This document shows, piece after piece, positions 2,072-40,922 of a DNA stretch of 64,000 nt. Origin of the DNA: Verrucomicrobiota bacterium. Its GTDB lineage: Bacteria; Verrucomicrobiota; Kiritimatiellia; JAAZAB01. How positions within the stretch are numbered: the stretch's first letter is position 1; every line of letters begins with the position of its first letter. The position numbers were made by a program, and so were the translations under genes. The stretch covers positions 1,560 through 65,559 of the forward strand of contig JAHIJO010000014.1 in NCBI GenBank assembly GCA_018898455.1. Direction: 5' to 3'. A model generated the notes under the pieces. The model did not search any database and was not told where the DNA came from. It saw nothing but the letters and a program-made list of their open reading frames with translations.

Positions 2072-4210
2072 TCAAGCCGGAGCCATTCGTTGGCGCGTCA
2101 ACTGCATCAGCGTTTCGTGAGTGCCCAGCGAGTATTCGGGATGGCAGGGCTGACGTTGAACATAGGATCCATCCGGTTGCATCTCCCAGGCCTGGCGCTC
2201 GTCCCGGATCAGCGTTTGCAGGATTTCCCAACACTTTTCACGCAAGGCCCGTGTTTCGATGGGCGTAATCGCTTCCACCCGTGCCAGCAGATTCCGATAC
2301 ATCCAGTCGGCCGACCCGATGAAAAACTCGCCGTCCAGCGGATCGGCGGCGCCGTTGCGGAAATAAAAAATACGGGAGTGTTCCAGGAAACGCCCGATTA
2401 CGGACAGGACACGGATGTTTTCGCTGACGCCCGGTACGCCGGGGCTCAGACAGCAGAAGCCCCGCACGAGCAGGGTGATCTCCACGCCGGCCTGCGAAGC
2501 GCAATAGAGCGCCCGGCAGATTTTGTCTTCTTCCAGGCTGTTCATCTTGGCGATAATCCCGGCGGGCCGGCCCGCCTGCCGATGGCCGATCTCACGCTCG
2601 ATCAGCGCCAGGAAGCGCTCCCGCATGTTGACGGGCGCAATGAGCAGTTTGCGATAATTCCGGTTCAGCGAGCGACCGGTGAGATAGTTGAAGAGCTCGA
2701 TAATTTCTTCGGTCAATTCGGGCCGGCAGGTCAACAGTCCAAGATCCGTGTAGAGTTTGGCCGTTTGACTGTGGTAATTGCCGGTGCCGATATGGGCGTA
2801 GGATCGGAGACCCTCGGCCTCTTCGCGAATGACCAGCGTGATCTTGGCATGAGTTTTCAGACCCACCAGGCCATACACGACATGGATGCCTGCTTTTTCC
2901 ATCAATTGGGCCCAGTAAATATTACGTTCCTCGTCGAACCGGGCTTTCAGCTCCACGAGGCATACGATCTGCTTTCCTTCCTCGGCGGCCTGGATGAGCG
3001 TGCGGATAAAGGGGCTTTCATCGCTGATGCGATACAGGGTCATCTTGATGGCCAGGACTTTCGGGTCCTCGGCGGCGGCGCGGATGAACCGCTCGACGCT
3101 GGCGGTGAAATCCTCGTAGGGATGATGCACCAGGATGTCGCTGCCGCGGATAAGGCTGAAGATGTCGCTTTGTTCGGCGGCCAGGGCCGGTGGTACCAGC
3201 GGAGTCCATGGCGCATAGTGCAGTGCCGGCAGGTTCAGCTCGGCGATCGTCTGCAGGTCGGTGTAATCGAGTCCGCCGGCAATTTCATACAAGTCATCGG
3301 GGGCGATTTCCAACTCATCGATCAGAAGCTTCAGCATCTCGGGGTGAGGGTTCGGGCCATGTTCCATGCGGACCACCTTTTCGAACCGGCGCTGGCGAAT
3401 TTCCTGTTCTATCAGTGCCAGCAGGTCTTCCGTGTCTTCTTCGTCCCGCTCCACATCGGCGTTGCGCGTGATCCGGAACGGCATGACCTGCCGAACGTCC
3501 ATTTCCGGGAAGAGCATGTCCAGGTTGTGCCGGATCAGATCGATCAGGCTGACAAAAAGAAAACGGTCGTTGCCGTCGGCCGTTTCCAGCCGGATCCATT
3601 GGGGCAGGACCTTGGGGATTTTGATCCTGGCAAAAAAATCTTCGGCGGTGTCGGGATGCTTCAGCATGACGCCCAGCGAGGTGGAGAGGTTGGAGATAAA
3701 GGGGAACGGATGTCCCGGATCCACGGCCAGGGGCGTAAGCACCGGGAAGACGCGGGTTTTAAAATAACCATGCGCCGCCTCACGTTCGGGGCCGGTGAGT
3801 TTGGCCCAGGGCGTCAGGTCGATATGGCGCTGGGCCAGCGCCGGCTTGATGTCGCGCTCGAAACAGGTTGCCTGCAGGCGAAGCATGGGAAGCACCTGGT
3901 TCCGGATGGCGGCTAACTGCTGTTCCGGCCGCATGCCGTCCGCAGATCGATGCGTGACCCCTGCCAGAATCTGCCGTTTGAATCCGCCCACCCGCTTCAT
4001 AAAGAACTCGTCCAGGTTGAATGTGAAGATGCCCAGAAATTTGATCCGCTCCAGTAGCGGTGTGCGCGGGTCGCAGGCCTCGTGGAGAACCCGGCGATTG
4101 AATTCCAGCCACATCAGTTCGCGGTTGAGGAACGGGGCGGATTCGGGGCTGGCGCTCTCTGCGGCGGGCGTTACCGCTTCCGGGACTCTGGATTTCTTTA
4201 TTTTTTTCAT
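2072..4210 (-). CDS. ppk: polyphosphate kinase 1
   Basis: 712 aa ORF with the PPK1 N-terminal and two PLD-like C-terminal domains, full PPK1 length and an FNLDEFF-containing N-terminal domain. Confidence 0.9.
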   Translation of the reverse strand: MKKIKKSRVPEAVTPAAESASPESAPFLNRELMWLEFNRRVLHEACDPRTPLLERIKFLGIFTFNLDEFFMKRVGGFKRQILAGVTHRSADGMRPEQQLAAIRNQVLPMLRLQATCFERDIKPALAQRHIDLTPWAKLTGPEREAAHGYFKTRVFPVLTPLAVDPGHPFPFISNLSTSLGVMLKHPDTAEDFFARIKIPKVLPQWIRLETADGNDRFLFVSLIDLIRHNLDMLFPEMDVRQVMPFRITRNADVERDEEDTEDLLALIEQEIRQRRFEKVVRMEHGPNPHPEMLKLLIDELEIAPDDLYEIAGGLDYTDLQTIAELNLPALHYAPWTPLVPPALAAEQSDIFSLIRGSDILVHHPYEDFTASVERFIRAAAEDPKVLAIKMTLYRISDESPFIRTLIQAAEEGKQIVCLVELKARFDEERNIYWAQLMEKAGIHVVYGLVGLKTHAKITLVIREEAEGLRSYAHIGTGNYHSQTAKLYTDLGLLTCRPELTEEIIELFNYLTGRSLNRNYRKLLIAPVNMRERFLALIEREIGHRQAGRPAGIIAKMNSLEEDKICRALYCASQAGVEITLLVRGFCCLSPGVPGVSENIRVLSVIGRFLEHSRIFYFRNGAADPLDGEFFIGSADWMYRNLLARVEAITPIETRALREKCWEILQTLIRDERQAWEMQPDGSYVQRQPCHPEYSLGTHETLMQLTRQRMAPA

Positions 4211-4225
4211 GGCGAAAAATCCAAG

Positions 4226-5656
4226 CTAACCTTTGACGCAGATTACCGGCGCCAGCTTGGCTACGGGCCGGGCCAGGCGTGCCTGGGCGGTGGCCGCCAC
4301 AACGTCATGGATGTCCTTGTAGGCGCCGGGCGCCTCTTCGGCGACGCCGCGTAACGAACGGGTGCGGATCAGGATGTTTTTCAGCGCCAGATTTTTGATG
4401 ACGTCCTTGCCTTGCCACTGCTTCGCGGCCTGGGTCCGGCTCATTTTCCGTCCGGCGCCATGACAGGCAGAGCTGAAGGAAAGCGACTCGCTTTCGGCGG
4501 TGCCCGTCAGGATATAGGATGCGGTGCCCATACTGCCGCCAACCAAAACAGGCTGGCCGATGGTTCGCAGTTCTGGGGGGAGTTCCGGATGGCCGGGACC
4601 GAGAGCTCGCGTAGCCCCCTTCCGATGCACATACAACGTTTTTGTCCTGCCGGCGACGGTATGGTTTTCCAGATTACAGGTATTGTGGGATACGTCATAC
4701 AGCAGGGGCAAGGTCATGTTTCCAAACAGCTTGCAGAAAGTTTCCCGGACCAGGCTGGACAGGATTTGACGATTGGCCAGGGCGCAGTTGATGGCGGCCC
4801 GCATGGCGCCCAGATACGCCTGGCCCTCGGATGAATTAATCGGTGCGCAGGCCAGTTCCCGGTCGGTGATGGCGATGCCGTGGACGTGAGCGGCTTGAAG
4901 CATGGATCGGGAAAACTCCGTTGCTACTTGATGGCCCAGTCCGCGGGAGCCGCAATGGATACTGACGACGATTTCGTTCTCGCGCAGGCCGAACGCACCG
5001 GCCGCTTTGGGATCGATGATATCAATGACCTGCTGGATTTCAAGATAATGGTTGCCGGAGCCGAGTGTGCCCATTTCATCCTGTTGCCGCTTGCGGGCCT
5101 GCTCAGAGATGGTTTCCGGGCGGGCCTCGGTGTTTTCGCCGCGATTTTCAATCCGTTCCAGATCATCTTGGACGCCATACCCCCGTTGCACGGCCCAGCG
5201 GGCTCCTCCCGTCAGCATGGCGTCCATTTCCCTGCGGTTGAGGGATAATGCGCCGGTACTGCCGATGCCGGCGGGGATGTTGTTGAACAGCGCGTCGGCC
5301 AGCGTGTCCTTTTTCGGGAGCAATTCGTCAGATGACAGGCCGGTGAGGAGGGTGCGGACACCGCAGGAAATATCGAAGCCAACACCGCCGGCGGAGACCA
5401 CTCCGCCACGGTCGGCGTCAAAAGCCGCCACGCCGCCGATGGGGAAGCCATACCCCCAGTGAGCATCGGGCATGCAATAGGCCGCGCTTTCGATACCCGG
5501 CAGGGCGGCCACGCGGCTGATTTGGTCCAGGACCTTGGCGTCCATTTCGCGGATCAGGGTTTCCGATGCATACAGGATGGCCGGGACGCGCATCGGTCCC
5601 GCGGGAGGTATCAGCCATTGACATTCGTCTTTACGCTGGAGCAATGCAATATCCAT
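4226..5656 (-). CDS. rtcB: RNA-splicing ligase RtcB
   Basis: 476 aa ORF with a conserved RtcB active-site region (DAHWGYGFPIGGV, metal-binding His/Cys). Confidence 0.9.
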   Translation of the reverse strand: MDIALLQRKDECQWLIPPAGPMRVPAILYASETLIREMDAKVLDQISRVAALPGIESAAYCMPDAHWGYGFPIGGVAAFDADRGGVVSAGGVGFDISCGVRTLLTGLSSDELLPKKDTLADALFNNIPAGIGSTGALSLNRREMDAMLTGGARWAVQRGYGVQDDLERIENRGENTEARPETISEQARKRQQDEMGTLGSGNHYLEIQQVIDIIDPKAAGAFGLRENEIVVSIHCGSRGLGHQVATEFSRSMLQAAHVHGIAITDRELACAPINSSEGQAYLGAMRAAINCALANRQILSSLVRETFCKLFGNMTLPLLYDVSHNTCNLENHTVAGRTKTLYVHRKGATRALGPGHPELPPELRTIGQPVLVGGSMGTASYILTGTAESESLSFSSACHGAGRKMSRTQAAKQWQGKDVIKNLALKNILIRTRSLRGVAEEAPGAYKDIHDVVAATAQARLARPVAKLAPVICVKG

Positions 5657-9768: not shown

Positions 9769-10638
9769 CTACTCCTTCTTCGTTGAATACGTCATCTTGA
9801 CGTCGAGTTGTTTCTTGCCGAAATTGACAATCATTCCCCATGACACATGGAGTAGCCGGATATAGGTCTGCATGATGGCACGATCGGCGGCGCGAATGCT
9901 TTCGTGAAGCGCCAGGATGATCGCAGCGCCATGGTCCCCTATCTTCATGCAGTCCAAAAGTGTGTGTCCCAGGGTGTATTCTCCTGAAGCCACATCCGTT
10001 TCGGGATTAAGATGGAAAGATACACCTTTCATCCGAAGATCGGCGGACAGTAAGCCTCGATAGGTTGTATCCCGATATCCCAAGCCATACTCTAAATAAA
10101 TTTGGCGTATAGATTCTGTGCAACCGTCCAGCATGGTTTTTTCAGGACAAGCCTCAAGAACTATGGGTAAAGTATCAAGGACATCGTTGTTTGCCCGATC
10201 AGGAGCGTCAAAGATAACGCGTTTTCGTACTAAGCTCTCTTTGCCAAAGTCAATGAGCCAGCCCGTTCTAATTGCCCAGAACTTCTGATAACACATCAGT
10301 TGCGCGTAATGTTCGGGTGCCAGGGGGCCGCGCAACGCTTTTAACTCCAGCACCAGTTTCCCTTCGACAATTAAATCCCCCTCAAATTCGTCGGCGACAA
10401 TGCCGTGGTGCTTCAATTGCCCCTTCGGCTTGAATTGATGCTCAATTCCCTTCGCGGCCAATTTATCCGCCAATAAACGGTGATAGAAGATTTCGTCCAA
10501 GCCAGGCCCAAGTTCCCGATGGACAGCCATCGCCTGTCCTATGACGGCATAGCTCAACTTATCTTCGCCCGCTTTCATCATTCGTGGTTGTCCTGAATTC
10601 GTGGGGGGGGATATCTTCATTCTTTGTCCGGTCAGCAT
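9769..10638 (-). CDS. GxxExxY protein (tandem PD-(D/E)XK-like GxxExxY domains)
   Basis: 289 aa ORF. The first half has GPGLDEIFY (a GxxExxY motif) with downstream E/K catalytic-like residues. The second half is a diverged repeat of the same fold. Confidence 0.7.
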   Translation of the reverse strand: MLTGQRMKISPPTNSGQPRMMKAGEDKLSYAVIGQAMAVHRELGPGLDEIFYHRLLADKLAAKGIEHQFKPKGQLKHHGIVADEFEGDLIVEGKLVLELKALRGPLAPEHYAQLMCYQKFWAIRTGWLIDFGKESLVRKRVIFDAPDRANNDVLDTLPIVLEACPEKTMLDGCTESIRQIYLEYGLGYRDTTYRGLLSADLRMKGVSFHLNPETDVASGEYTLGHTLLDCMKIGDHGAAIILALHESIRAADRAIMQTYIRLLHVSWGMIVNFGKKQLDVKMTYSTKKE

Positions 10639-10657
10639 GCCTTGCTGCGTATGATTG

Positions 10658-11530
10658 TCACGAGCGGTCCAAGTTGTTCGAGCTTATTTCAAAATATCGT
10701 TCCATCGCGGACAGCCCCTCGGGGGTGCCCATGTCCAGGAGCGGCGGTGGAACGGGGAAGGCACGCAACTGGCCTTGCGCCGCCAGTTCGGGAAAGATGT
10801 CCGTTTCGAGCGATATCTTCTTGCCGACTGCGAACGGGGCCAGGGCCTTCTTGTCCATCAGATAGGCGCCACCATTGACCCATCCTTCCTGGCGCTCCGC
10901 CTTTTCATGGAATGCGCTGATCCTGCGATCCGGATCGAATTCAATCGTTCCATAGCGGCCGGTTTCACGAATTGTGGTCACGGCAAGGCTCGCGAGTGGG
11001 CCAGCCTGCTCATGGGCTTGTCGAAATGCCGCGAAATCCAGATGGGGCAGGAACGAATCGCCGTTCAACACCAGGAATGGATCGGAGCGAATGTGTTTTT
11101 CCACGTGTTTCAGTCCTCCGCCGGTGCCCAGGGGCGAGGGTTCGGCGGAGAAAGAAAGCGAGAGATCAGAGGAGAAAGGAAAAAAAATAGCCTTGCTGAT
11201 GCGAAATAATTGCCCGTGAATTCCATCGGTCTTTTTGCTGATTTCTGACCCACCTTCGCCCCTTGACGGCTGGCTATGGCGGGCGAGCCTCTGACCTCTG
11301 ACTTCTGATTTCTGACTTCTAGCTTCTGCCGGGCACAGCCATTCTTGAATGGCTTCGCTCATATGGCCGGAGGCCAGATGGATATCGCGCACCCCGCCTT
11401 GGCTCAGCCAAGCCAACTGATGCTCCAGGAACGGTATTCCGGCGACCGGGATAAGGGCCTTCGGCCGATCCGGATATAACCGGCTGATGCGGATTCCTTT
11501 GCCGCCAACAAGAATGATCGCTTGAACCAT
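10658..11530 (-). CDS. sugar-1-phosphate nucleotidyltransferase (HddC/mannose-1-P guanylyltransferase-like) carrying ~40 aa low-complexity in-frame insertion
   Basis: The N-terminus ILVGGKGIRISRLYPDRPKALIPVAG matches the GGxGxRLxxLT-type motif, and EPSPLGTGGGL matches the EPLGTAG motif. The segment between them is about 40 aa longer than usual. It is encoded by a repeat-like insert containing an A8 tract and TCTGAYT heptamers. Confidence 0.6.
   Translation of the reverse strand: MVQAIILVGGKGIRISRLYPDRPKALIPVAGIPFLEHQLAWLSQGGVRDIHLASGHMSEAIQEWLCPAEARSQKSEVRGQRLARHSQPSRGEGGSEISKKTDGIHGQLFRISKAIFFPFSSDLSLSFSAEPSPLGTGGGLKHVEKHIRSDPFLVLNGDSFLPHLDFAAFRQAHEQAGPLASLAVTTIRETGRYGTIEFDPDRRISAFHEKAERQEGWVNGGAYLMDKKALAPFAVGKKISLETDIFPELAAQGQLRAFPVPPPLLDMGTPEGLSAMERYFEISSNNLDRS
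11290..11331. repeat. imperfect heptanucleotide tandem repeat (TCTGACC/TCTGACT/TCTGATT/TCTGACT/TCTAGCT/TCTGCCG) inside CDS
   Basis: Read directly from the sequence: 6 units with a 7-bp period. Confidence 0.8.
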
Positions 11531-11605
11531 GACGCTTCAGATAATATACTTATATGCCTTTTTGTCAAAAAGGGATTTCACGCGGATTAATTGCCTCCAA
11601 AGCTT

Positions 11606-12634
11606 ATGGCAGATGCTAACAGACCCGATCTTTCGGTTGTGATCCCGACACTGGGCCGTCCTTTTGTCGTCCGCACGCTGACGTCCTTGGCGGCAGCTCA
11701 TGGATTTTCGAAACTGGAAATCCTCCTGATCGGCAAGATTCCGGATGTTTCTGTGGCCGAGCGGGTGCGGGCCATTTCGATGCAGTATCCGCAGATTCGC
11801 CATATCGCTGTTTCGTTTGAGACCGGCGATTCCAGCGAAAAGAAGAATGCCGGCCTTCGGGCAGCGAGCGCGGATATCGTGGCGTTTCTTGATGACGACG
11901 TCATCGTGGCGCCGGACTGGGCAGAAAAAATACTGACGCCGTTTTCACAGCCTGATGTCGGATTGGTCAGCGGTCCCAGCCTGGTGCCCGCTGATATCCC
12001 GTTGCCGGGGCGTCTGGCCGGCCTGGCGCTGTCGTCATATGCGGCCGGTTACGTTGCCCGGCGCTACCTGCGACAACAGGAGGGGCCGCATGCCGCCACC
12101 TGGTCGCAGATTATCGGCTGTAATATGGTTTACCGGAAATCCGTGCTGATTGACATCGGTGGGTTCAATCCGAGATTCTGGCCCGGGGAGGAAATGATCG
12201 CGTCGTATCGGACGGCTCAGCGCGGCTATCGGATTATTTTTCATCCGCAGGCCTGTGTCGACCATTATCCCCGGACATCGGTGATGGGCTTTATGCGTCA
12301 GATGTTTGGATACGGGGCCACGCGCATTCGGCTTATCCGGGCGGGCGTTACATTGGAACCGATGACGCTGATTCCCGGGCTATGGTTGTTGTCGTTGGTG
12401 ATATTGCTGCCGGGGGCCTGGGTCTCGTATTGGGTTGCGATGTTGCTGGCGGTCAACATTGGAGCTTACGCCCTGATCGATATCGCCATAACCATGATGA
12501 AGGTAATGGCCACCCGCCGCGCGATTGACCTATTGCTATTGGGCTACATTCCGCTCATGCACTTGAGTTACGGACTGGGGGAATGGATAGAATTGCTGAT
12601 GCCAGGCCGGGATTTGAGCGAGCAACGCGGTTAG
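11606..12634 (+). CDS. family 2 glycosyltransferase with C-terminal membrane segments
   Basis: ORF 11591..12634 has DLSVVIPTLGRP and DDD motifs of GT-A/GT2 followed by 3-4 hydrophobic helices. The start is ATG 11606 or TTG 11591. Confidence 0.75.
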   Translation: MADANRPDLSVVIPTLGRPFVVRTLTSLAAAHGFSKLEILLIGKIPDVSVAERVRAISMQYPQIRHIAVSFETGDSSEKKNAGLRAASADIVAFLDDDVIVAPDWAEKILTPFSQPDVGLVSGPSLVPADIPLPGRLAGLALSSYAAGYVARRYLRQQEGPHAATWSQIIGCNMVYRKSVLIDIGGFNPRFWPGEEMIASYRTAQRGYRIIFHPQACVDHYPRTSVMGFMRQMFGYGATRIRLIRAGVTLEPMTLIPGLWLLSLVILLPGAWVSYWVAMLLAVNIGAYALIDIAITMMKVMATRRAIDLLLLGYIPLMHLSYGLGEWIELLMPGRDLSEQRG

Positions 12635-14988: not shown

Positions 14989-15100
14989 TTGGCCCGCGAA
15001 ACACGCGAAAGGACCGTGAATATAAATACCTGAAAATTGCACGGAGGCGTGCAATTTTCACCCTCCGGGCCGTCGTAACCCCGCATTAATGCGGGGTTAC
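14989..15100. repeat. palindrome-dense intergenic block
   Basis: It contains a CGCGAA-family repeat at 14989-15020. A perfect 12-bp IR GAAAATTGCACG/CGTGCAATTTTC lies at 15032-15059, and a perfect 26-bp palindrome GTAACCCCGCATTAATGCGGGGTTAC lies at 15075-15100. Homologous CGCGAA-rich copies lie at 38400 and 40837. Confidence 0.7.
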
Positions 15101-15238: not shown

Positions 15239-15691
15239 TTAACTTGATATGCTTATCATTTTTTTTCTTGTATTTGCCAGCCGTTCCCATTCCAGCTTGG
15301 GATAATGTCCGAAATTAACCAGTAAGCCGAGCTTAAAGCCAGTCGCTTGGAGATAATTGATTACTTGCGCTCTGTGCTCGTCGGTTAGTTGAGAAACGGC
15401 TTTAATTTCCGCAATTATTTTTTCGTAACAAATAAAATCAGGTTCGTAAGCGTGTTTGAGACGGCGTCCTTTGTATTCCAGAGCAAGCGTTTTCTGGGAG
15501 ACAAAAGGCATGCCTAGTAGCTCGAATTCTATTTCGAGGCATTCCTGATAAACAGGCTCAAGAAATCCGCATCCCTTATTTCCATAAACCTCAAGACATG
15601 CGCCCACAACCTTAAACGCTTCCTCTCTATATATCAGGTTATCCATATTCGCGTTCGTTTCGCGGGCTACATTCTTATCTTGCCTTTCCAT
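15239..15691 (-). CDS. GxxExxY protein (PD-(D/E)XK-like)
   Basis: 150 aa ORF with GCGFLEPVY (a GxxExxY motif) and a typical ~125 aa core. It overlaps the stop of the upstream membrane-protein gene by 25 bp. Confidence 0.75.
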   Translation of the reverse strand: MERQDKNVARETNANMDNLIYREEAFKVVGACLEVYGNKGCGFLEPVYQECLEIEFELLGMPFVSQKTLALEYKGRRLKHAYEPDFICYEKIIAEIKAVSQLTDEHRAQVINYLQATGFKLGLLVNFGHYPKLEWERLANTRKKMISISS

Positions 15692-17230: not shown

Positions 17231-17396
17231 CTGAGGCATTACTCTTGCTCATCAGGCAGGCTTGCTTTTACCGCCACCTTCCCCTACAATCATGAGTTCT
17301 GACATCATGGAAACAGTTTCTTATGCTGGACGGGGAATTTCTCCCTGGGGGAGGCCTTGCCTTGCCTATTCATGGCGATTTAATGAAAGAAAAAAT

Positions 17397-17963
17397 ATGA
17401 ACGAATCATATATCGAGAGACTGCGTGTTCTCCACGAAGTGCTTTTGGGACTGCAGGTAACTAACGGACGCGGTTCCAGGTTGGATCCGGCAACGGGCTT
17501 TAACAGACTGCTTCAATTGACCCTCGATGCCAGAAAGAAGCATAGCGCCATTTTTTTGGTCGGCAATGGCGCCAGCGCCTCAATGGCCAGCCATATTGCG
17601 GCGGATCTTTGTAAAAATGCCGACCTGAACACGGAAGTGTTTTCTGATTTCTCGCTGCTGACGGCTGTTGCCAATGATGTCGGCTCCGATCATCTCTATG
17701 CGGTGCCTTTAAAACGCCGGGCGAAAGCAAACGACATCCTGGTTGCCATAAGCAGTTCTGGTAAATCGCGGAATATATTGGAGTCGGTTCGCATGGGCCG
17801 CAAGATGGGGGTGAAAGTGATTACGTTTTCGGCAATGAGCATTAATAATCCCTTGCGTAAAACGGGCGATCTGAATTTTTATATAAGGGCCGGTTCATAT
17901 GGGCTGGCCGAATCCGCTCATGCGGTTTTGCTGCATTACTGGGTTGATATGCTTTCTCGTTGA
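17397..17963 (+). CDS. gmhA: D-sedoheptulose 7-phosphate isomerase (SIS domain, GmhA-like)
   Basis: ORF 17262..17963 with an internal start MNESYIERL. The SIS-domain motifs are present (VGNGASASMASHIAADL, ISSSGKS). Confidence 0.75.
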   Translation: MNESYIERLRVLHEVLLGLQVTNGRGSRLDPATGFNRLLQLTLDARKKHSAIFLVGNGASASMASHIAADLCKNADLNTEVFSDFSLLTAVANDVGSDHLYAVPLKRRAKANDILVAISSSGKSRNILESVRMGRKMGVKVITFSAMSINNPLRKTGDLNFYIRAGSYGLAESAHAVLLHYWVDMLSR

Positions 17964-18003
17964 ATAGGTGATTATCCGGACAGCTTATCCAGGATGTTCG
18001 ATA

Positions 18004-19017
18004 ATGAGTGTCAATTTTAAGAAAGTTCTTGTACTGGGAAGCAATTCATTCACCGGCTCGCATTTGATCAGATGTTTGCTGGACAATACCGAAGCGGAAA
18101 TAGTTGGTATAAGCCGGTCGGCGGAATATAATCCTGTTTTTTTACCGTATCGTTATCTCAAGAATATTCCGGCGCGGTTTAGATTTTGCCGGATTGATTT
18201 GAACAATGATTTTGCCGGAGTTGCCCGGCTTTGCGATGAGTTTCGCCCTGAAATTATCGTGAATTATGCCGCCCAAGGCGAAGTGCGCAATAGCTGGAAC
18301 TGGCCGGAGCAGTGGTATCGGACTAATTGCCTCGCGGTTGTCCGCGTTTCGGAAATTTTTAAAACAAAGGACTATTTGAAAAAATATATTGCTGCTTCCA
18401 CTCCGGAGGTTTATGGCGCAACGGGGCTGAATATAAAAGAAAGCCACAGCTATTATCCAAGTACACCGTATGCCGCTTCAAAGCTTGCGGGGGATTTGCA
18501 TCTTTTTGCTTTGCATAAACGCCATGGGTTCCCGGTTGTGTTTTCAAGGACGGCAAATGTTTATGGCATTCATCAACAGCTTTATCGTATCATTCCACGC
18601 ACGATTATTTTTCTAAAAGCCGGCAAAAAGATTACGCTTCACGGGCGCGGCGAGTCCCGGCGGGCTTTTATTCATGCCCGTGACGTCGCCGATTTTACCT
18701 TACGTTTGATCTTGCGGGGCAAGCCGGGTGAAATTTATCATTTGTCGCCGAAGGAAGGATTAATGCGCATTGCCGATGTGGTGCGGCAGATATGCGGCAT
18801 GATGGGACGCGGCTTTGACGAATCGGTGGAGTTGGTTGACGAAAATTACGGTCAGGATGATCAATACAGCCTTGATTCGACGAAGGCCGGCCGCGAACTT
18901 GGCTGGCGCCAGGCCGTGCCGTTTGAGGAAGGTTTAAAGGAAACAATAACCTGGATATCCGACAATTGGGATTTTATCCGCGCCCAGCCGTTGGAATACA
19001 AGCATATTGCGAGTTAA
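18004..19017 (+). CDS. NDP-sugar 4,6-dehydratase family (NAD-dependent epimerase/dehydratase, extended SDR)
   Basis: ORF 17968..19017 with GSNSFTGSHL (the Rossmann GxxGxxG motif), a YxxxK catalytic motif and the ~340 aa length of RmlB/GDP-heptose dehydratase-like enzymes. Confidence 0.75.
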   Translation: MSVNFKKVLVLGSNSFTGSHLIRCLLDNTEAEIVGISRSAEYNPVFLPYRYLKNIPARFRFCRIDLNNDFAGVARLCDEFRPEIIVNYAAQGEVRNSWNWPEQWYRTNCLAVVRVSEIFKTKDYLKKYIAASTPEVYGATGLNIKESHSYYPSTPYAASKLAGDLHLFALHKRHGFPVVFSRTANVYGIHQQLYRIIPRTIIFLKAGKKITLHGRGESRRAFIHARDVADFTLRLILRGKPGEIYHLSPKEGLMRIADVVRQICGMMGRGFDESVELVDENYGQDDQYSLDSTKAGRELGWRQAVPFEEGLKETITWISDNWDFIRAQPLEYKHIAS

Positions 19018-19023
19018 CCAAAC

Positions 19024-20172
19024 ATGAAAAAAGAGCGCAACTATTTACCCGAGCAATATAGCCGGACCGCCGGCTTGCCCATCAACCATAATTATCTTCG
19101 GCAGCAGTTTGCGGATTACGCGAAAATACTGAAAAAAATCGGGCGCCTCGCGCAGGAGGGCGATTACACGCTCGGGAAACAGGTCGATGAATTCGAAGCC
19201 AATATCAGGAAATTGACCGGCAGCCGGCATGCTATAGGCGTAGGGAGCGGGACGGATGCCATCTTTTTGAGCCTGAAAGCCTCCGGCATCGGGAACGGTG
19301 ACGAAGTTATTACCACGCCCTATACCTTCGTGGCAACCATCGGCGCCATTGTGGCGACCGGCGCCAAGCCGGTGTTCGCGGATATAGGCGAAGATTACAA
19401 CCTTGACCCCGCCTTACTCGTTCCTAGGATTTCGGCCCGGACCAAGGCCATCCTGCCGGTGCACTGGTCAGGGCTTCCTTGCCGGATGGATGCGATTCTG
19501 AATATTGCCCGGCAGCATCATTTGTCGGTCATTGAAGACTCCTGCCATGGCATCCGGGCTTATTTCAAAGGAAAAGCGGCAGGAACATTTGGATTGTGCG
19601 GCTGTTTTAGCATGCATCCCTTGAAAAACCTCAATGTCTGGGGGGATGGGGGATATATCGTCACGGATTCGGACGAAATTTATAAACGGTTAATGCTTCT
19701 TCGCAATCACGGCTTGGCGGACCGCAATGAATGCCGGATATTCGGCTATAACTCGCGCTTGGATTCGATCCAGGCGATTGTGGCCAACCATCTTCTGCAA
19801 AAAATCGACGCCATAACCAAAGCGCGTATCGATAATGCGCGTTTATATGATGAAGTTTTGCGCGAGATTAAGCAGATTATTATTCCCCCGCGCCGGCCGG
19901 ATGCCGTTCAGGTGTATCACCTGTATATTGTCAGGGCGGAGAGGCGCGATGAATTGCAGAAATATTTGCTGAAAAACGGCATTGACGCCAAGGTTCATTA
20001 TCCGGTTCCGATGCATTTACAGCCGGCGGCAAAGATTTATGGATATAAGGCTGGAGATTTTCCGGTCTGCGAGCGGACCTGCAAATCCGTCATTTCATTG
20101 CCGGTCCATGAATTTATTACGGAAAAACAGATCAAAACTGTTGCCAAAAAGATAAAAGAATTTTATGCGTAA
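19024..20172 (+). CDS. DegT/DnrJ/EryC1/StrS-family PLP aminotransferase (sugar aminotransferase)
   Basis: 382 aa ORF with a typical DegT core and Lys-containing PLP region (FSMHPLKNLNVWGDGG). Confidence 0.85.
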   Translation: MKKERNYLPEQYSRTAGLPINHNYLRQQFADYAKILKKIGRLAQEGDYTLGKQVDEFEANIRKLTGSRHAIGVGSGTDAIFLSLKASGIGNGDEVITTPYTFVATIGAIVATGAKPVFADIGEDYNLDPALLVPRISARTKAILPVHWSGLPCRMDAILNIARQHHLSVIEDSCHGIRAYFKGKAAGTFGLCGCFSMHPLKNLNVWGDGGYIVTDSDEIYKRLMLLRNHGLADRNECRIFGYNSRLDSIQAIVANHLLQKIDAITKARIDNARLYDEVLREIKQIIIPPRRPDAVQVYHLYIVRAERRDELQKYLLKNGIDAKVHYPVPMHLQPAAKIYGYKAGDFPVCERTCKSVISLPVHEFITEKQIKTVAKKIKEFYA

Positions 20173-21364
20173 AATACAATTCGTCAATTTAGGACTTCAA
20201 TACCGCTCACTGCGCAGTGAAATTCTGGCTGCGTTTGATCGTGTTTCCCGGCAGGGGGCTTATGTGCTGGGAAAAGAGGTGGGACTATTTGAGGAAGAAT
20301 TCGCCGATTATTGTGGAACAAGGCATGCGGTGAGTGTGGCGAACGGTTCGGATGCTTTGTATCTCGCCTTAATCGCGCTTGGAATCGGGGCTGGCGATGA
20401 GGTGATAACTGTTCCGAACTCATTCCTGGCGACGGCTTGGGCGATCGCGCGGACGGGCGCGCGCATTGTATTCGTTGATGTCGGCAATGATATGAATATT
20501 AACCCGGCCTTGATTGAAAGAGCCTGTACGCGGCGGACAAAGGCGATTATGCCGGTGCATTTGACGGGGCGGGTTGCCGATATGGATGCAATTTTAAAGA
20601 TAGCCAAACGTCGGCGGCTTCATGTTGTTGAGGATGCGGCGCAGGCCGTGGGCGCGCGTTATCACGGTCAATACGCGGGATCATTCGGCGTGTGCGCGGG
20701 CTTTAGTCTGCATCCCTTGAAGAACTTGCATGTCCATGGTGATGGCGGTGTAATAACAACCAGTAACGAAAAAATATATTCAACCCTGATCCAACTTCGG
20801 AATCATGGGCTGGTGAGCCGCGATATCTGTAATCTGATCGGAATTAATTCGCGGTTGGATTCCGTCCAGGCCGCCATAGCCAGAATTAAATTGAGACGTC
20901 TGGAAAAATGGAATAGGCGCATGCGATTTCTTGCCGGGATTTACTCCAGCGGTCTGAGCCGTTTTGTCGTCGTGCCCGAAGAAAAACGCTATGAAGAATC
21001 CTGTTATCATCGGTATATGATCAGGCTTGAGAAGCGGGATGATCTCGGTAAATTTCTGGAAAACAACGGCATAGAAACAAAAGTCAATTATCCCGTGCCG
21101 ATTCATCTCCAGCCGGCCGCAAAAAGTTTGGGATACCGGCGCGGCGATTTTCCGGTCGCCGAAAAGCTGGCCGATACCATATTGAGTTTGCCGCTTTATC
21201 CGGAGATGAAGGATCCTGATGTGACATTCGTTATTGAGATGATAAGGCGGTATTTTGAAAGAAGGGGAAGTTGTGAGAAGGGGCCGGCAGGGCGCGCTCG
21301 CCGCCGCGGTTTCAGGTTCCGCCGGAGCGCGACGTCCAAGCGAGGGTGCTATGCCAAGGCATAG
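20165..21364 (+). CDS. DegT/DnrJ/EryC1/StrS-family PLP aminotransferase, second paralog
   Basis: 399 aa ORF paralogous to the preceding gene (FSLHPLKNLHVHGDGG). Its Arg-rich C-terminal tail probably reads through a GC-rich repeat, so the true stop may be earlier. Confidence 0.8.
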   Translation: MRKIQFVNLGLQYRSLRSEILAAFDRVSRQGAYVLGKEVGLFEEEFADYCGTRHAVSVANGSDALYLALIALGIGAGDEVITVPNSFLATAWAIARTGARIVFVDVGNDMNINPALIERACTRRTKAIMPVHLTGRVADMDAILKIAKRRRLHVVEDAAQAVGARYHGQYAGSFGVCAGFSLHPLKNLHVHGDGGVITTSNEKIYSTLIQLRNHGLVSRDICNLIGINSRLDSVQAAIARIKLRRLEKWNRRMRFLAGIYSSGLSRFVVVPEEKRYEESCYHRYMIRLEKRDDLGKFLENNGIETKVNYPVPIHLQPAAKSLGYRRGDFPVAEKLADTILSLPLYPEMKDPDVTFVIEMIRRYFERRGSCEKGPAGRARRRGFRFRRSATSKRGCYAKA

Positions 21365-38399: not shown

Positions 38400-38521
38400 T
38401 TGCCCGCGAACCACGCGAAAGGAACGCGAAAACTGATTACTCAACTGGCTTGAATTTCCTATTCATCGATTTGGATATATAAAATTTACTATTCGTGTCC
38501 TTTTGCTTGTTTCGCGGGCAA
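38400..38521. mobile_element. MITE-like 122-bp element with 13-bp terminal inverted repeats TTGCCCGCGAACC / GTTTCGCGGGCAA
   Basis: TIRs read directly with 12/13 complementarity. The internal motif CGCGAAAGGAACGCGAAAACTGATTAC is shared with 40837-40876 and 14989-15012. Confidence 0.6.
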
Positions 38522-40836: not shown

Positions 40837-40922
40837 TTGCCCGCGAACTACGCAAAAGGAATGCGAAATGATTACATAAAAAAACGGATTTATTCGCGTC
40901 TCATTCGCGTAATTCGCGGTTA
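40837..40922. repeat. CGCGAA-family intergenic repeat copy (TTGCCCGCGAACTACGCAAAAGGAATGCGAAATGATTAC ... TTCGCG x3)
   Basis: Read directly, similar to 38400-38440. Confidence 0.6.

Follow-up and report, generated by a model that had tools for sequence, protein, structure and literature searches.

We examined a window of 64,000 nucleotides (64 kb) from contig JAHIJO010000014.1 of a Verrucomicrobiota bacterium (assembly GCA_018898455.1), which encodes on its reverse strand a nucleoside diphosphate (NDP)-sugar pyrophosphorylase of 290 amino acids (aa) related to HddC. Between the two parts of its catalytic core this transferase carries an extra in-frame segment with tandem heptanucleotides, which an earlier note on this DNA had interpreted as a repeat-derived insertion and as a candidate phase-variation switch. 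Comparison with orthologs, structural modelling and searches for the same repeat elsewhere lead us to regard the segment as probably translated, decaying heptamer-array DNA, selfish or neutral, that has been kept in frame in a permissive surface loop of an intact enzyme. The gene and the parts of its insert are arranged as follows (ORF, open reading frame; TRF, Tandem Repeats Finder; pLDDT, predicted local distance difference test).

10658-11530, minus strand: coding sequence (CDS) of the HddC-like NDP-sugar pyrophosphorylase (NTP_transferase), 290 aa, from the ORF call, Pfam and structure comparison
11336-11530, minus strand: N-terminal core, aa 1-65, with the GGxGxR nucleotide-binding loop and, as its last element, helix 55-65
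11162-11335, minus strand: expanded loop, aa 66-123, with low pLDDT and near-neutral evolution, from ortholog lengths, AlphaFold2 and codon-position differences
11290-11328, minus strand: heptamer array 1, on the coding strand (A/G)(A/G)(T/C)(C/T)AGA x 5.6, encoding ARSQKSEVRGQR, from TRF
11231-11251, minus strand: second mini-array in the same orientation, coding strand GGGTCAGAAATCAGCAAAAAG, from repeat comparison within the insert
11198-11224, plus strand: motif GATGCGAAATAATTGCCCGTGAATTCC singled out in the earlier note, encoding GIHGQLFRI, which aligns with KTHEHLFNI of the homolog P0002
11180-11187, minus strand: A8 on the plus strand (T8 on the coding strand, encoding IFF), from the sequence
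11156-11179, minus strand: degenerate inverted arm, coding strand CCTTTCTCCTCTGATCTCTCGCTT, encoding FPFSSDLSLS, from complementarity to array 1
10658-11161, minus strand: C-terminal core, aa 124-290, with the EPxPLGTGG motif, the sugar-binding half and the LDMGTP motif; pLDDT >90

As modelled, the host gene is a complete HddC-like sugar-1-phosphate nucleotidyltransferase. Pfam assigns residues 4 to 273 to NTP_transferase (PF00483; E = 7e-20, 72.1 bits against a cut-off of 21.2), and the nearest NCBIfam models are those of mannose-1-phosphate and heptose-1-phosphate guanylyltransferases, every match being split into two stretches. The best solved-structure relative by sequence is HddC of Yersinia pseudotuberculosis (6jq8, E = 4e-25), residues 2 to 61 of the query aligning with 2 to 61 of the chain and residues 124 to 273 with 74 to 217, so that 62 query residues stand in place of 12 in HddC. 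The protein scores 98.8 bits against the HddC equivalog NF049965 (NCBIfam cut-off 300), and we attribute these depressed family-model scores, the split match and the missed equivalog cut-off alike, to the repeat-derived loop. Ten residues are invariant in 34 homologs (G9, G10, G12, R14, E130, L134, G135, T136, G138 and G139). The AlphaFold2 model of the protein has a mean pLDDT of 87, with values above 90 in the core and of 53 to 60 at residues ~70 to 120, a stretch positioned between helix 55-65 and strand 124-128. Foldseek likewise returns HddC as the top match (5xhw/6jq8, E ~1e-19), with a TM score to 5xhw of 0.90 when normalised to the 225-residue target, dropping to 0.70 when normalised to the longer query. 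The confidently predicted core and its match to the HddC fold indicate that the enzyme is complete and that the extra segment is an excursion of a surface loop, the position for which the earlier note had proposed a comparison with HddC structures. The identical protein (P0121) is deposited under four NCBI accessions on four contigs of ‘Verrucomicrobia bacterium’ metagenome-assembled genomes (MAGs; MBU4198532.1, MBU4247625.1, MBU4290806.1 and MBU4428352.1), and the sole change in a JGI variant, P0001, is G177D, outside the insert.

The loop of the window protein exceeds that of insert-less orthologs by 51 aa (~153 bp), the basal loop of most orthologs being 12 to 13 residues long; the extra in-frame segment announced by the earlier note is thus real, but larger than the ~40 aa (~120 bp) estimated there. 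TRF resolves array 1 with a period of 7, 5.6 copies, 81% matches, a score of 50 and the consensus TCTGACT, in agreement with the imperfect TCTGAYT heptamers previously recognised at 11290-11331. All three reading frames of array 1 are open on the coding strand, and its longest perfect period-7 run is 15 nt (11288-11302). Three or more head-to-tail heptamers beyond chance are characteristic of the short tandemly repeated repetitive (STRR) and long simple sequence repeat (LSSR) classes and are found in the insert, which holds the sole substantial heptamer array of the 64-kb window. The pattern TCAGARGTCAGAR, allowing at most one mismatch, has four matches in the window against 0.21 expected, three of the four being inside the insert. 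Part of the second mini-array (11238-11249) is identical to 11305-11316 of array 1, and the arms 11156-11179 and 11295-11318, 115 nt apart, are 71 to 82% complementary (z of the fold -0.2 to -0.7). The A8 run is present one base from where it had been placed (11179-11186), and in simulation a +/-1 change in it cuts the protein short at aa 121 or 139. The motif at 11198-11224 is exactly as first quoted. Its proposed kinship with a dispersed CGCGAA/TTGCCCGCGAAC family is marginal and, in our judgement, insufficient for a claim of homology, as the resemblance amounts to two non-collinear 13-nt stretches (12/13 matches each) in the wrong order, with p ~0.01-0.02 before multiple-test correction, and the same region aligns with ordinary insert sequence of P0002. 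An intein or intron was ruled out by size, the lack of a motif and a preserved frame with selection against stop codons.

Homologs of the protein share 45 to 62% identity with it, and range from 230 to 343 aa; those with a source name are labelled Verrucomicrobiota, Kiritimatiellota or Lentisphaerae and are mostly MAGs. Their length varies mainly at the insert loop, with lesser variation at a second internal loop and at the termini. Loop length, taken as the distance from GxGTR to LGTGG, was measurable in 72 of 80 species-representative genome loci (L numbers), of which ~60 have the basal length (219 +/- 9 nt); within this set of 72, inserts are confined to L001-L005, L007, L011, L016, L027, L036 and L055, where they add 8 to 40 residues. 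Two further inserts, in L063 (+48 aa) and L071, were measured separately and compare with +51 in the window. The segment is therefore an insert and not a conserved domain, as the earlier note had suspected, and its loop is the only place expanded in the window protein. In lying in frame at a fold-compatible surface position, it behaves as would Rickettsia palindromic elements (RPEs) or transposable elements of the miniature inverted-repeat type (MITEs).

The insert is homologous among the window, P0002, P0003 and L027. Its ends are common to the three closest sequences (E-x-R-[SG]-Q-[KR]-S on the N-terminal side, [LV]F-x-[IV] ... SD[LI]S on the C-terminal side), indicating that it was inherited and is no assembly artefact. 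On a rough neighbour-joining tree, which left out L063 and L071, the window groups with P0002, P0003, L027, L001 and L004, all insert-bearing, with L006 and L013 as sisters without insert; the insert-bearing L002/L003, L005/L011/L055 and L016 fall elsewhere, and this scatter implies several gains or many losses. Counted per codon position, pairwise differences amount to 0.22/0.17/0.50 in the core and ~0.40/0.45/0.54 in the insert (three sequences, protein-guided alignment), a contrast suggesting that the core is under purifying selection while the insert drifts.

A second permissive loop was observed in the orthologs after LDFxxLxxAH, where 17 to 71 residues are found and the window has a short form (aa 162-183, ~10982-11047). 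Its fillings are palindromes translating to FQxLEK...FSxxWK or, in L038 (4365-4450), the heptamers ACGGAGG and AATCCCC; repeats also occupy this loop in L046 (2526-2573) and L080.

Insert DNA is strongly 7-periodic in every insert-bearing locus. L002 contains (GGGCAGAAGTCAGG) x 3.5 in perfect 14-mers followed by (GTTTCAG) x 5.4, L016 has (AGTGTTC) x 4 followed by (ATTCACC) x 4, L027 has (GAGGCCA) x 3 inside a 4.7-copy array, and L063 and L071 have (GGTGTCA)n and, after ~100 nt, (TGACACC)n. One heptamer read in all three frames accounts for peptide signatures such as SEVRGQR, SGFRFQV and VSGVGCP. The unit GTCAGAR is open in three frames on the coding strand and its complement contains TGA; in the complementary arm of L063 one unit carries C for T exactly where an in-frame TGA would arise, which is the substitution that selection on the translated sequence predicts. 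Strong inverted arms were seen in L063, L071 and P0003. Most of the heptamer units seen have a TCAG core in common (TCAGARG, TCAGGTT, TCAGGTG, TCAGTGT, TCAGAAA), and the complement of the published repeat TAACTGA is TCAGTTA.

Arrays of this type are also found outside the transferase genes. The flanks of the ortholog loci contain 56 period-7 arrays against 19 of period 6 and 38 of period 8, with inverted pairs frequent, and a metagenome scan for (GTCAGAR)3 returned at least 120 stretches. Among the matches listed, 17 of 82 arrays lie mid-ORF in long open frames, 65 of 82 do not, and 10 of 82 have an inverted partner within 800 nt. Host ORFs among these matches encode Peptidase_M24, a class-III aminotransferase (Aminotran_3), two family 4 glycosyltransferases (GT4), a MiaB-like radical-SAM protein with the array between its UPF0004 and Radical_SAM domains, and a phosphomethylpyrimidine kinase (Phos_pyr_kin). 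The unit is thus dispersed and mostly intergenic across metagenomes and relatives, as STRRs and LSSRs are, though not inside the window, and the heptamer-array part of the insert recurs in frame in unrelated genes on metagenome contigs, as RPEs do. The presence of arrays in unrelated enzymes suggests that in-frame heptamer arrays in enzymes are recurrent and that the window insert is one old example, and to this extent the repeat-derived insertion proposed in the earlier note is upheld.

Several individual arrays deserve description. TTCTGAC, the unit of the window, forms arrays at L005 (6436) and L018 (228-259); in L018, (TTCTGAC) x 4.6 abuts the start codon of an insert-less ortholog, much as TAACTGA repeats have been reported immediately upstream of start codons. 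In L008 (1472-1661), L014 (1652-1836) and L015 (1467-1623) an orthologous site between genes holds an inverted array pair with arms ~120 nt apart, and these arms co-vary (ATTTTCG/CGAAAAT versus ATTTCTG/CAGAAAT) with complementarity kept. At L046 (1609-2150) inverted arrays of AACGTYS type bracket, in cassette-like fashion, an ORF for a 23S rRNA intervening-sequence protein (PF05635), and L039 (203-700) has decayed array pairs around a truncated PF05635 ORF.

The likeliest course, in our view, is that the loop gained a hairpin of heptamer arrays in an ancestor of the window’s clade, either as a small inserted mobile element or by local slippage-driven expansion. Only stop-free, frame-preserving versions would have persisted, and GTCAGAR, open in three frames in the coding orientation, would lend itself to this. 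Point mutation and indels would then have worn the element down to a disordered loop of ~58 residues, probably without a function of its own, in which imperfect units make slippage rare and the tract a frameshift hazard now and then but no switch. What we infer in this scenario is that the segment was inserted and not expanded in place, that the loop is translated and that it has no function; its position in the loop, its absence from most orthologs, its heptamer composition, its common ancestry with P0002, P0003 and L027, its near-neutral drift and the dispersal and in-frame tolerance of such arrays elsewhere are observed. Several points weigh against it. Translation of the loop is deduced from the preserved frame, and the near-neutral pattern of the insert from the three sequences and protein-guided alignment given above. 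A blastn-short search found no second copy of the insert in the 64-kb window, where matches were limited to chance-level 9-13-mers; several dispersed copies per genome, as expected of RPE-like or MITE-like elements, were accordingly not seen within it, and as it also holds no other heptamer array, mobility in the window’s genome is not demonstrated. No terminal inverted repeats or target-site duplication are definable at the present divergence, and the central ~110 nt of the insert have no relatives beyond orthologs. A protein search with the insert peptide alone gave no candidates, but did not retrieve the identical protein either. Finally, arrays in the same loop in several clades of the rough tree could mean targeting or function and not tolerance alone.

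A bolder extension of the same scenario, which we advance tentatively, is that inverted pairs of TCAG-core heptamers constitute an undescribed family of mobile or copied hairpin elements in the Verrucomicrobiota, the Kiritimatiellota and other environmental bacteria. Such elements may carry cargo such as PF05635 genes, colonise intergenic sites and enzyme loops and, while young, form mRNA stems that affect expression; the window insert would be an old, decayed member. The converse, that replication slippage and duplication in a tolerant loop produced the insert locally and no mobile element was ever inserted, seems to us unlikely, if the best surviving alternative to the reading of a decaying in-frame array. 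It would explain why the window holds no other copy and no visible terminal inverted repeat or target-site duplication, it is in keeping with reports that heptamers are a slippage-favoured unit length in many bacteria (PMC4679880), and the clade-specific heptamers (GTCAGAR, GTTTCAG, AGTGTTC, GGTGTCA) are what local birth and concerted evolution predict. Against a purely local origin, the identical GTCAGAR unit recurs in many unrelated metagenome genes and intergenic sites, inverted array pairs are not a product of slippage alone, and those of L046 surround the PF05635 gene like a cassette.

The transferase gene has a divergent family 2 glycosyltransferase (GT2) gene upstream (11591-12634), and at 6 to 10 kb, on the plus strand (17262-21364), there are sugar-nucleotide genes for a SIS-domain protein, an NAD-dependent epimerase/dehydratase and two DegT/DnrJ/EryC1 aminotransferases. 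Together with the GT2 gene these indicate a glycan-biosynthesis neighbourhood, and from this gene content a role of the transferase in supplying nucleotide-sugars for a glycan is plausible. Twenty nucleotides downstream of the transferase gene lies a 289-aa ORF (9769-10638, minus strand) with tandem double PDDEXK_3 (GxxExxY) domains and, within its 5' end, a G8 run (10603-10610; C8 on the coding strand). In P0002 and P0003 the corresponding place is taken by a TRL-domain gene, which suggests an insertion at the PDDEXK_3 ORF. The CGCGAA-containing repeats of the window, which had been compared with the insert, form a dispersed family, TTGCCCGCGAAC-N-ACGCRAAAGGAAYGCGAAA (TTGCCCGCGAAC...GCGAAA), of 24 to 32 nt at 38400-38431, 38498-38521 (minus strand), 40837-40868, 14992-15013 and 15648-15664 (minus strand). 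Their CGCGAA boxes are ~10-11 nt apart and the copies at 38400 and 38521 are inverted ~100 nt apart; the repeat may be a regulator-binding or promoter-associated motif.

The glycan genes, namely the adjoining GT2 gene and the nearby SIS, epimerase and DegT genes, bear on the proposal of the earlier note that the transferase is a contingency locus, in which slippage in the heptamers or in A8 would toggle the enzyme, and hence a surface glycan, at high frequency. The repeat unit is not a multiple of three, and simulated changes of +/-7, +/-14 and +/-1 truncate the protein at aa 80 to 144, bearing out the claim that slippage would break the frame. The 3.5 perfect 14-mers of L002 would also suit a switch, and L027, the nearest ortholog at genome level (57% identity), has a +1 frameshift inside or adjoining its array. 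This frameshift, known from a single MAG, was narrowed by comparison with relatives only to ~4200-4268, a 68-nt interval of which 41 nt are (GAGGCCA)-type array; neither frame meets a stop anywhere in the insert, and a 283-aa ORF is restored by any change of -7 or -1, including any 7-mer deletion within the insert. It could represent an off allele, a pseudogene or an assembly error, and the latter two detract from its value as support for switching. Established phase-variation switches, so far as is known, use long perfect tracts. The window allele has none, as adjacent units are never identical beyond the one 15-nt run and the homopolymer is only 8 nt long; A8 is absent from P0002 and P0003, and ~11 comparable homopolymers are found in the window. 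Nor did comparison of deposited sequences reveal tract-length polymorphism among close strains: the insert is identical in all deposited copies (P0121 under its four accessions, and P0001), and insert length is unchanged across all members of seven other 90% clusters. We therefore consider a phase-variation switch improbable for the window allele. Since slippage would switch the gene off and L027 is frameshifted, the tract is better described as a mutational liability, and slippage may occasionally inactivate the gene.

More doubtful still is a function at the RNA level, in which the inverted arms would form an mRNA stem serving as an RNase III site or as a stability or attenuation element that tunes expression of the transferase. 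The in-CDS hairpin is very stable in L063 (z = -8.4 against shuffles) and significant in L071 (-3.2), L027 (-2.8) and P0003 (-2.6), and the intergenic inverted pairs with co-varying arms at the orthologous site of L015, L008 and L014 have z of -5.2, -2.7 and -2.2. The arrays are moreover associated with genes for 23S rRNA intervening-sequence proteins, an association that recalls RNase III-excised intervening sequences. Yet in the window insert the long-range stem, although present in the minimum free energy structure, folds no more stably than shuffled sequence (z = -0.16 and -0.7), the P0002 stem folds less stably (+1.1), and the decay of hairpins in most lineages speaks against constraint. 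An Rfam scan of 10400-11800 (E <= 1) gave no match to the insert, returning a spurious miRNA match outside it only.

That the insert is a lineage-specific functional protein segment, for example a docking or regulatory linker, we hold to be very unlikely. The frame has stayed open over 58 to 70 residues in three diverged relatives and the flanking stretches are weakly conserved (E-x-R-[SG]-Q-[KR] and [LV]F-x-[IV] ... SD[LI]), as a functional segment might be; but the insert has no third-position excess of substitutions, amounts to anything from 8 to 51 extra residues and is lacking in most orthologs, and its pLDDT of 53 to 60 goes with a composition dictated by the heptamer unit. An assembly artefact, or a dead gene that by chance still stays open, is hardly credible despite the proneness of repeats to assembly error and the frameshift of L027, given the identical protein under four NCBI accessions on four contigs and its one-residue JGI variant, the homologous inserts in P0002, P0003 and L027 from independent assemblies, and a core with invariant catalytic motifs and a codon-position pattern (0.22/0.17/0.50) of purifying selection.

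For annotation, the transferase is best treated as intact, with an odd length that comes from a tolerated repeat-derived loop; sequence alone gives no warrant for labelling it a pseudogene, a new domain or a phase-variable gene. In wider terms, enzymes of the Planctomycetes-Verrucomicrobia-Chlamydiae (PVC) group and other uncultured lineages seem to gain in-frame sequence repeatedly from heptamer arrays, which are often paired in inverted orientation. To our knowledge, the only well-known parallel for in-frame repeat-derived enzyme sequence is in Rickettsia. Should the arrays turn out to be mobile or structured elements, they would make a tractable example of selfish repeats creating disordered protein loops and also frameshift hazards in glycan genes.

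Compared with known systems, the window core is closest to HddC and the GDP-mannose pyrophosphorylases, with HddC nearest by sequence and by fold, whereas characterised members have no loop insert and the window protein scores far under the equivalog cut-offs. With the contingency loci of Haemophilus, Neisseria and Moraxella the gene has in common an intragenic non-triplet repeat near surface-glycan genes, in which slippage leads to ON/OFF frameshifts; known switches, however, have long perfect tracts and length polymorphism between close isolates, as opposed to a 15-nt run and identical tracts here. The analogy with Correia elements of Neisseria and ERIC elements of Enterobacteria drawn in the earlier note extends to small non-autonomous repeats with inverted ends that occasionally lie within ORFs, but not further, as these are defined families, restricted to other phyla, that occur in many copies and have characteristic terminal repeats, neither of which was seen at the window insert.

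Among long simple repeats, heptamers are reported to be the most abundant class (PMC4679880), and they include the STRR heptanucleotide repeats of cyanobacteria and the TAACTGA repeats of Beggiatoaceae, Cyanobacteria and Bacteroidetes, the latter lying within ORFs only when oriented so as to lack stop codons, and mostly at protein termini (PMC4679880; PMC4692102). Like the window-type repeats, STRR, LSSR and TAACTGA repeats are short dispersed arrays of three to six heptamers, mostly intergenic and sometimes in ORFs, and the complement of TAACTGA shares the TCAG core with the window unit. The window-type arrays differ from STRR and TAACTGA repeats in their unit (GTCAGAR), in often forming inverted pairs, in their mid-enzyme instead of peripheral position in the protein and in their PVC host; a literature search on heptanucleotide repeats in Verrucomicrobia found no description for the Verrucomicrobiota or Kiritimatiellota. 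RPEs are ~150-bp repeats that often lie in frame in metabolic genes at fold-compatible positions (PMC10969869). The window matches them in having a hairpin-type repeat of ~150 bp in a metabolic enzyme, to which it adds ~50 residues, and in belonging to a repeat type found in frame in unrelated genes. RPEs differ in being palindromes of unique sequence with a conserved peptide and many near-identical copies per genome, whereas the window insert has tandem heptamer arms, an unconserved centre, a single copy in 64 kb and a PVC host. By analogy, then, the closest functional parallel of the window insert is the RPEs and its closest compositional parallel the heptanucleotide tandem repeats.

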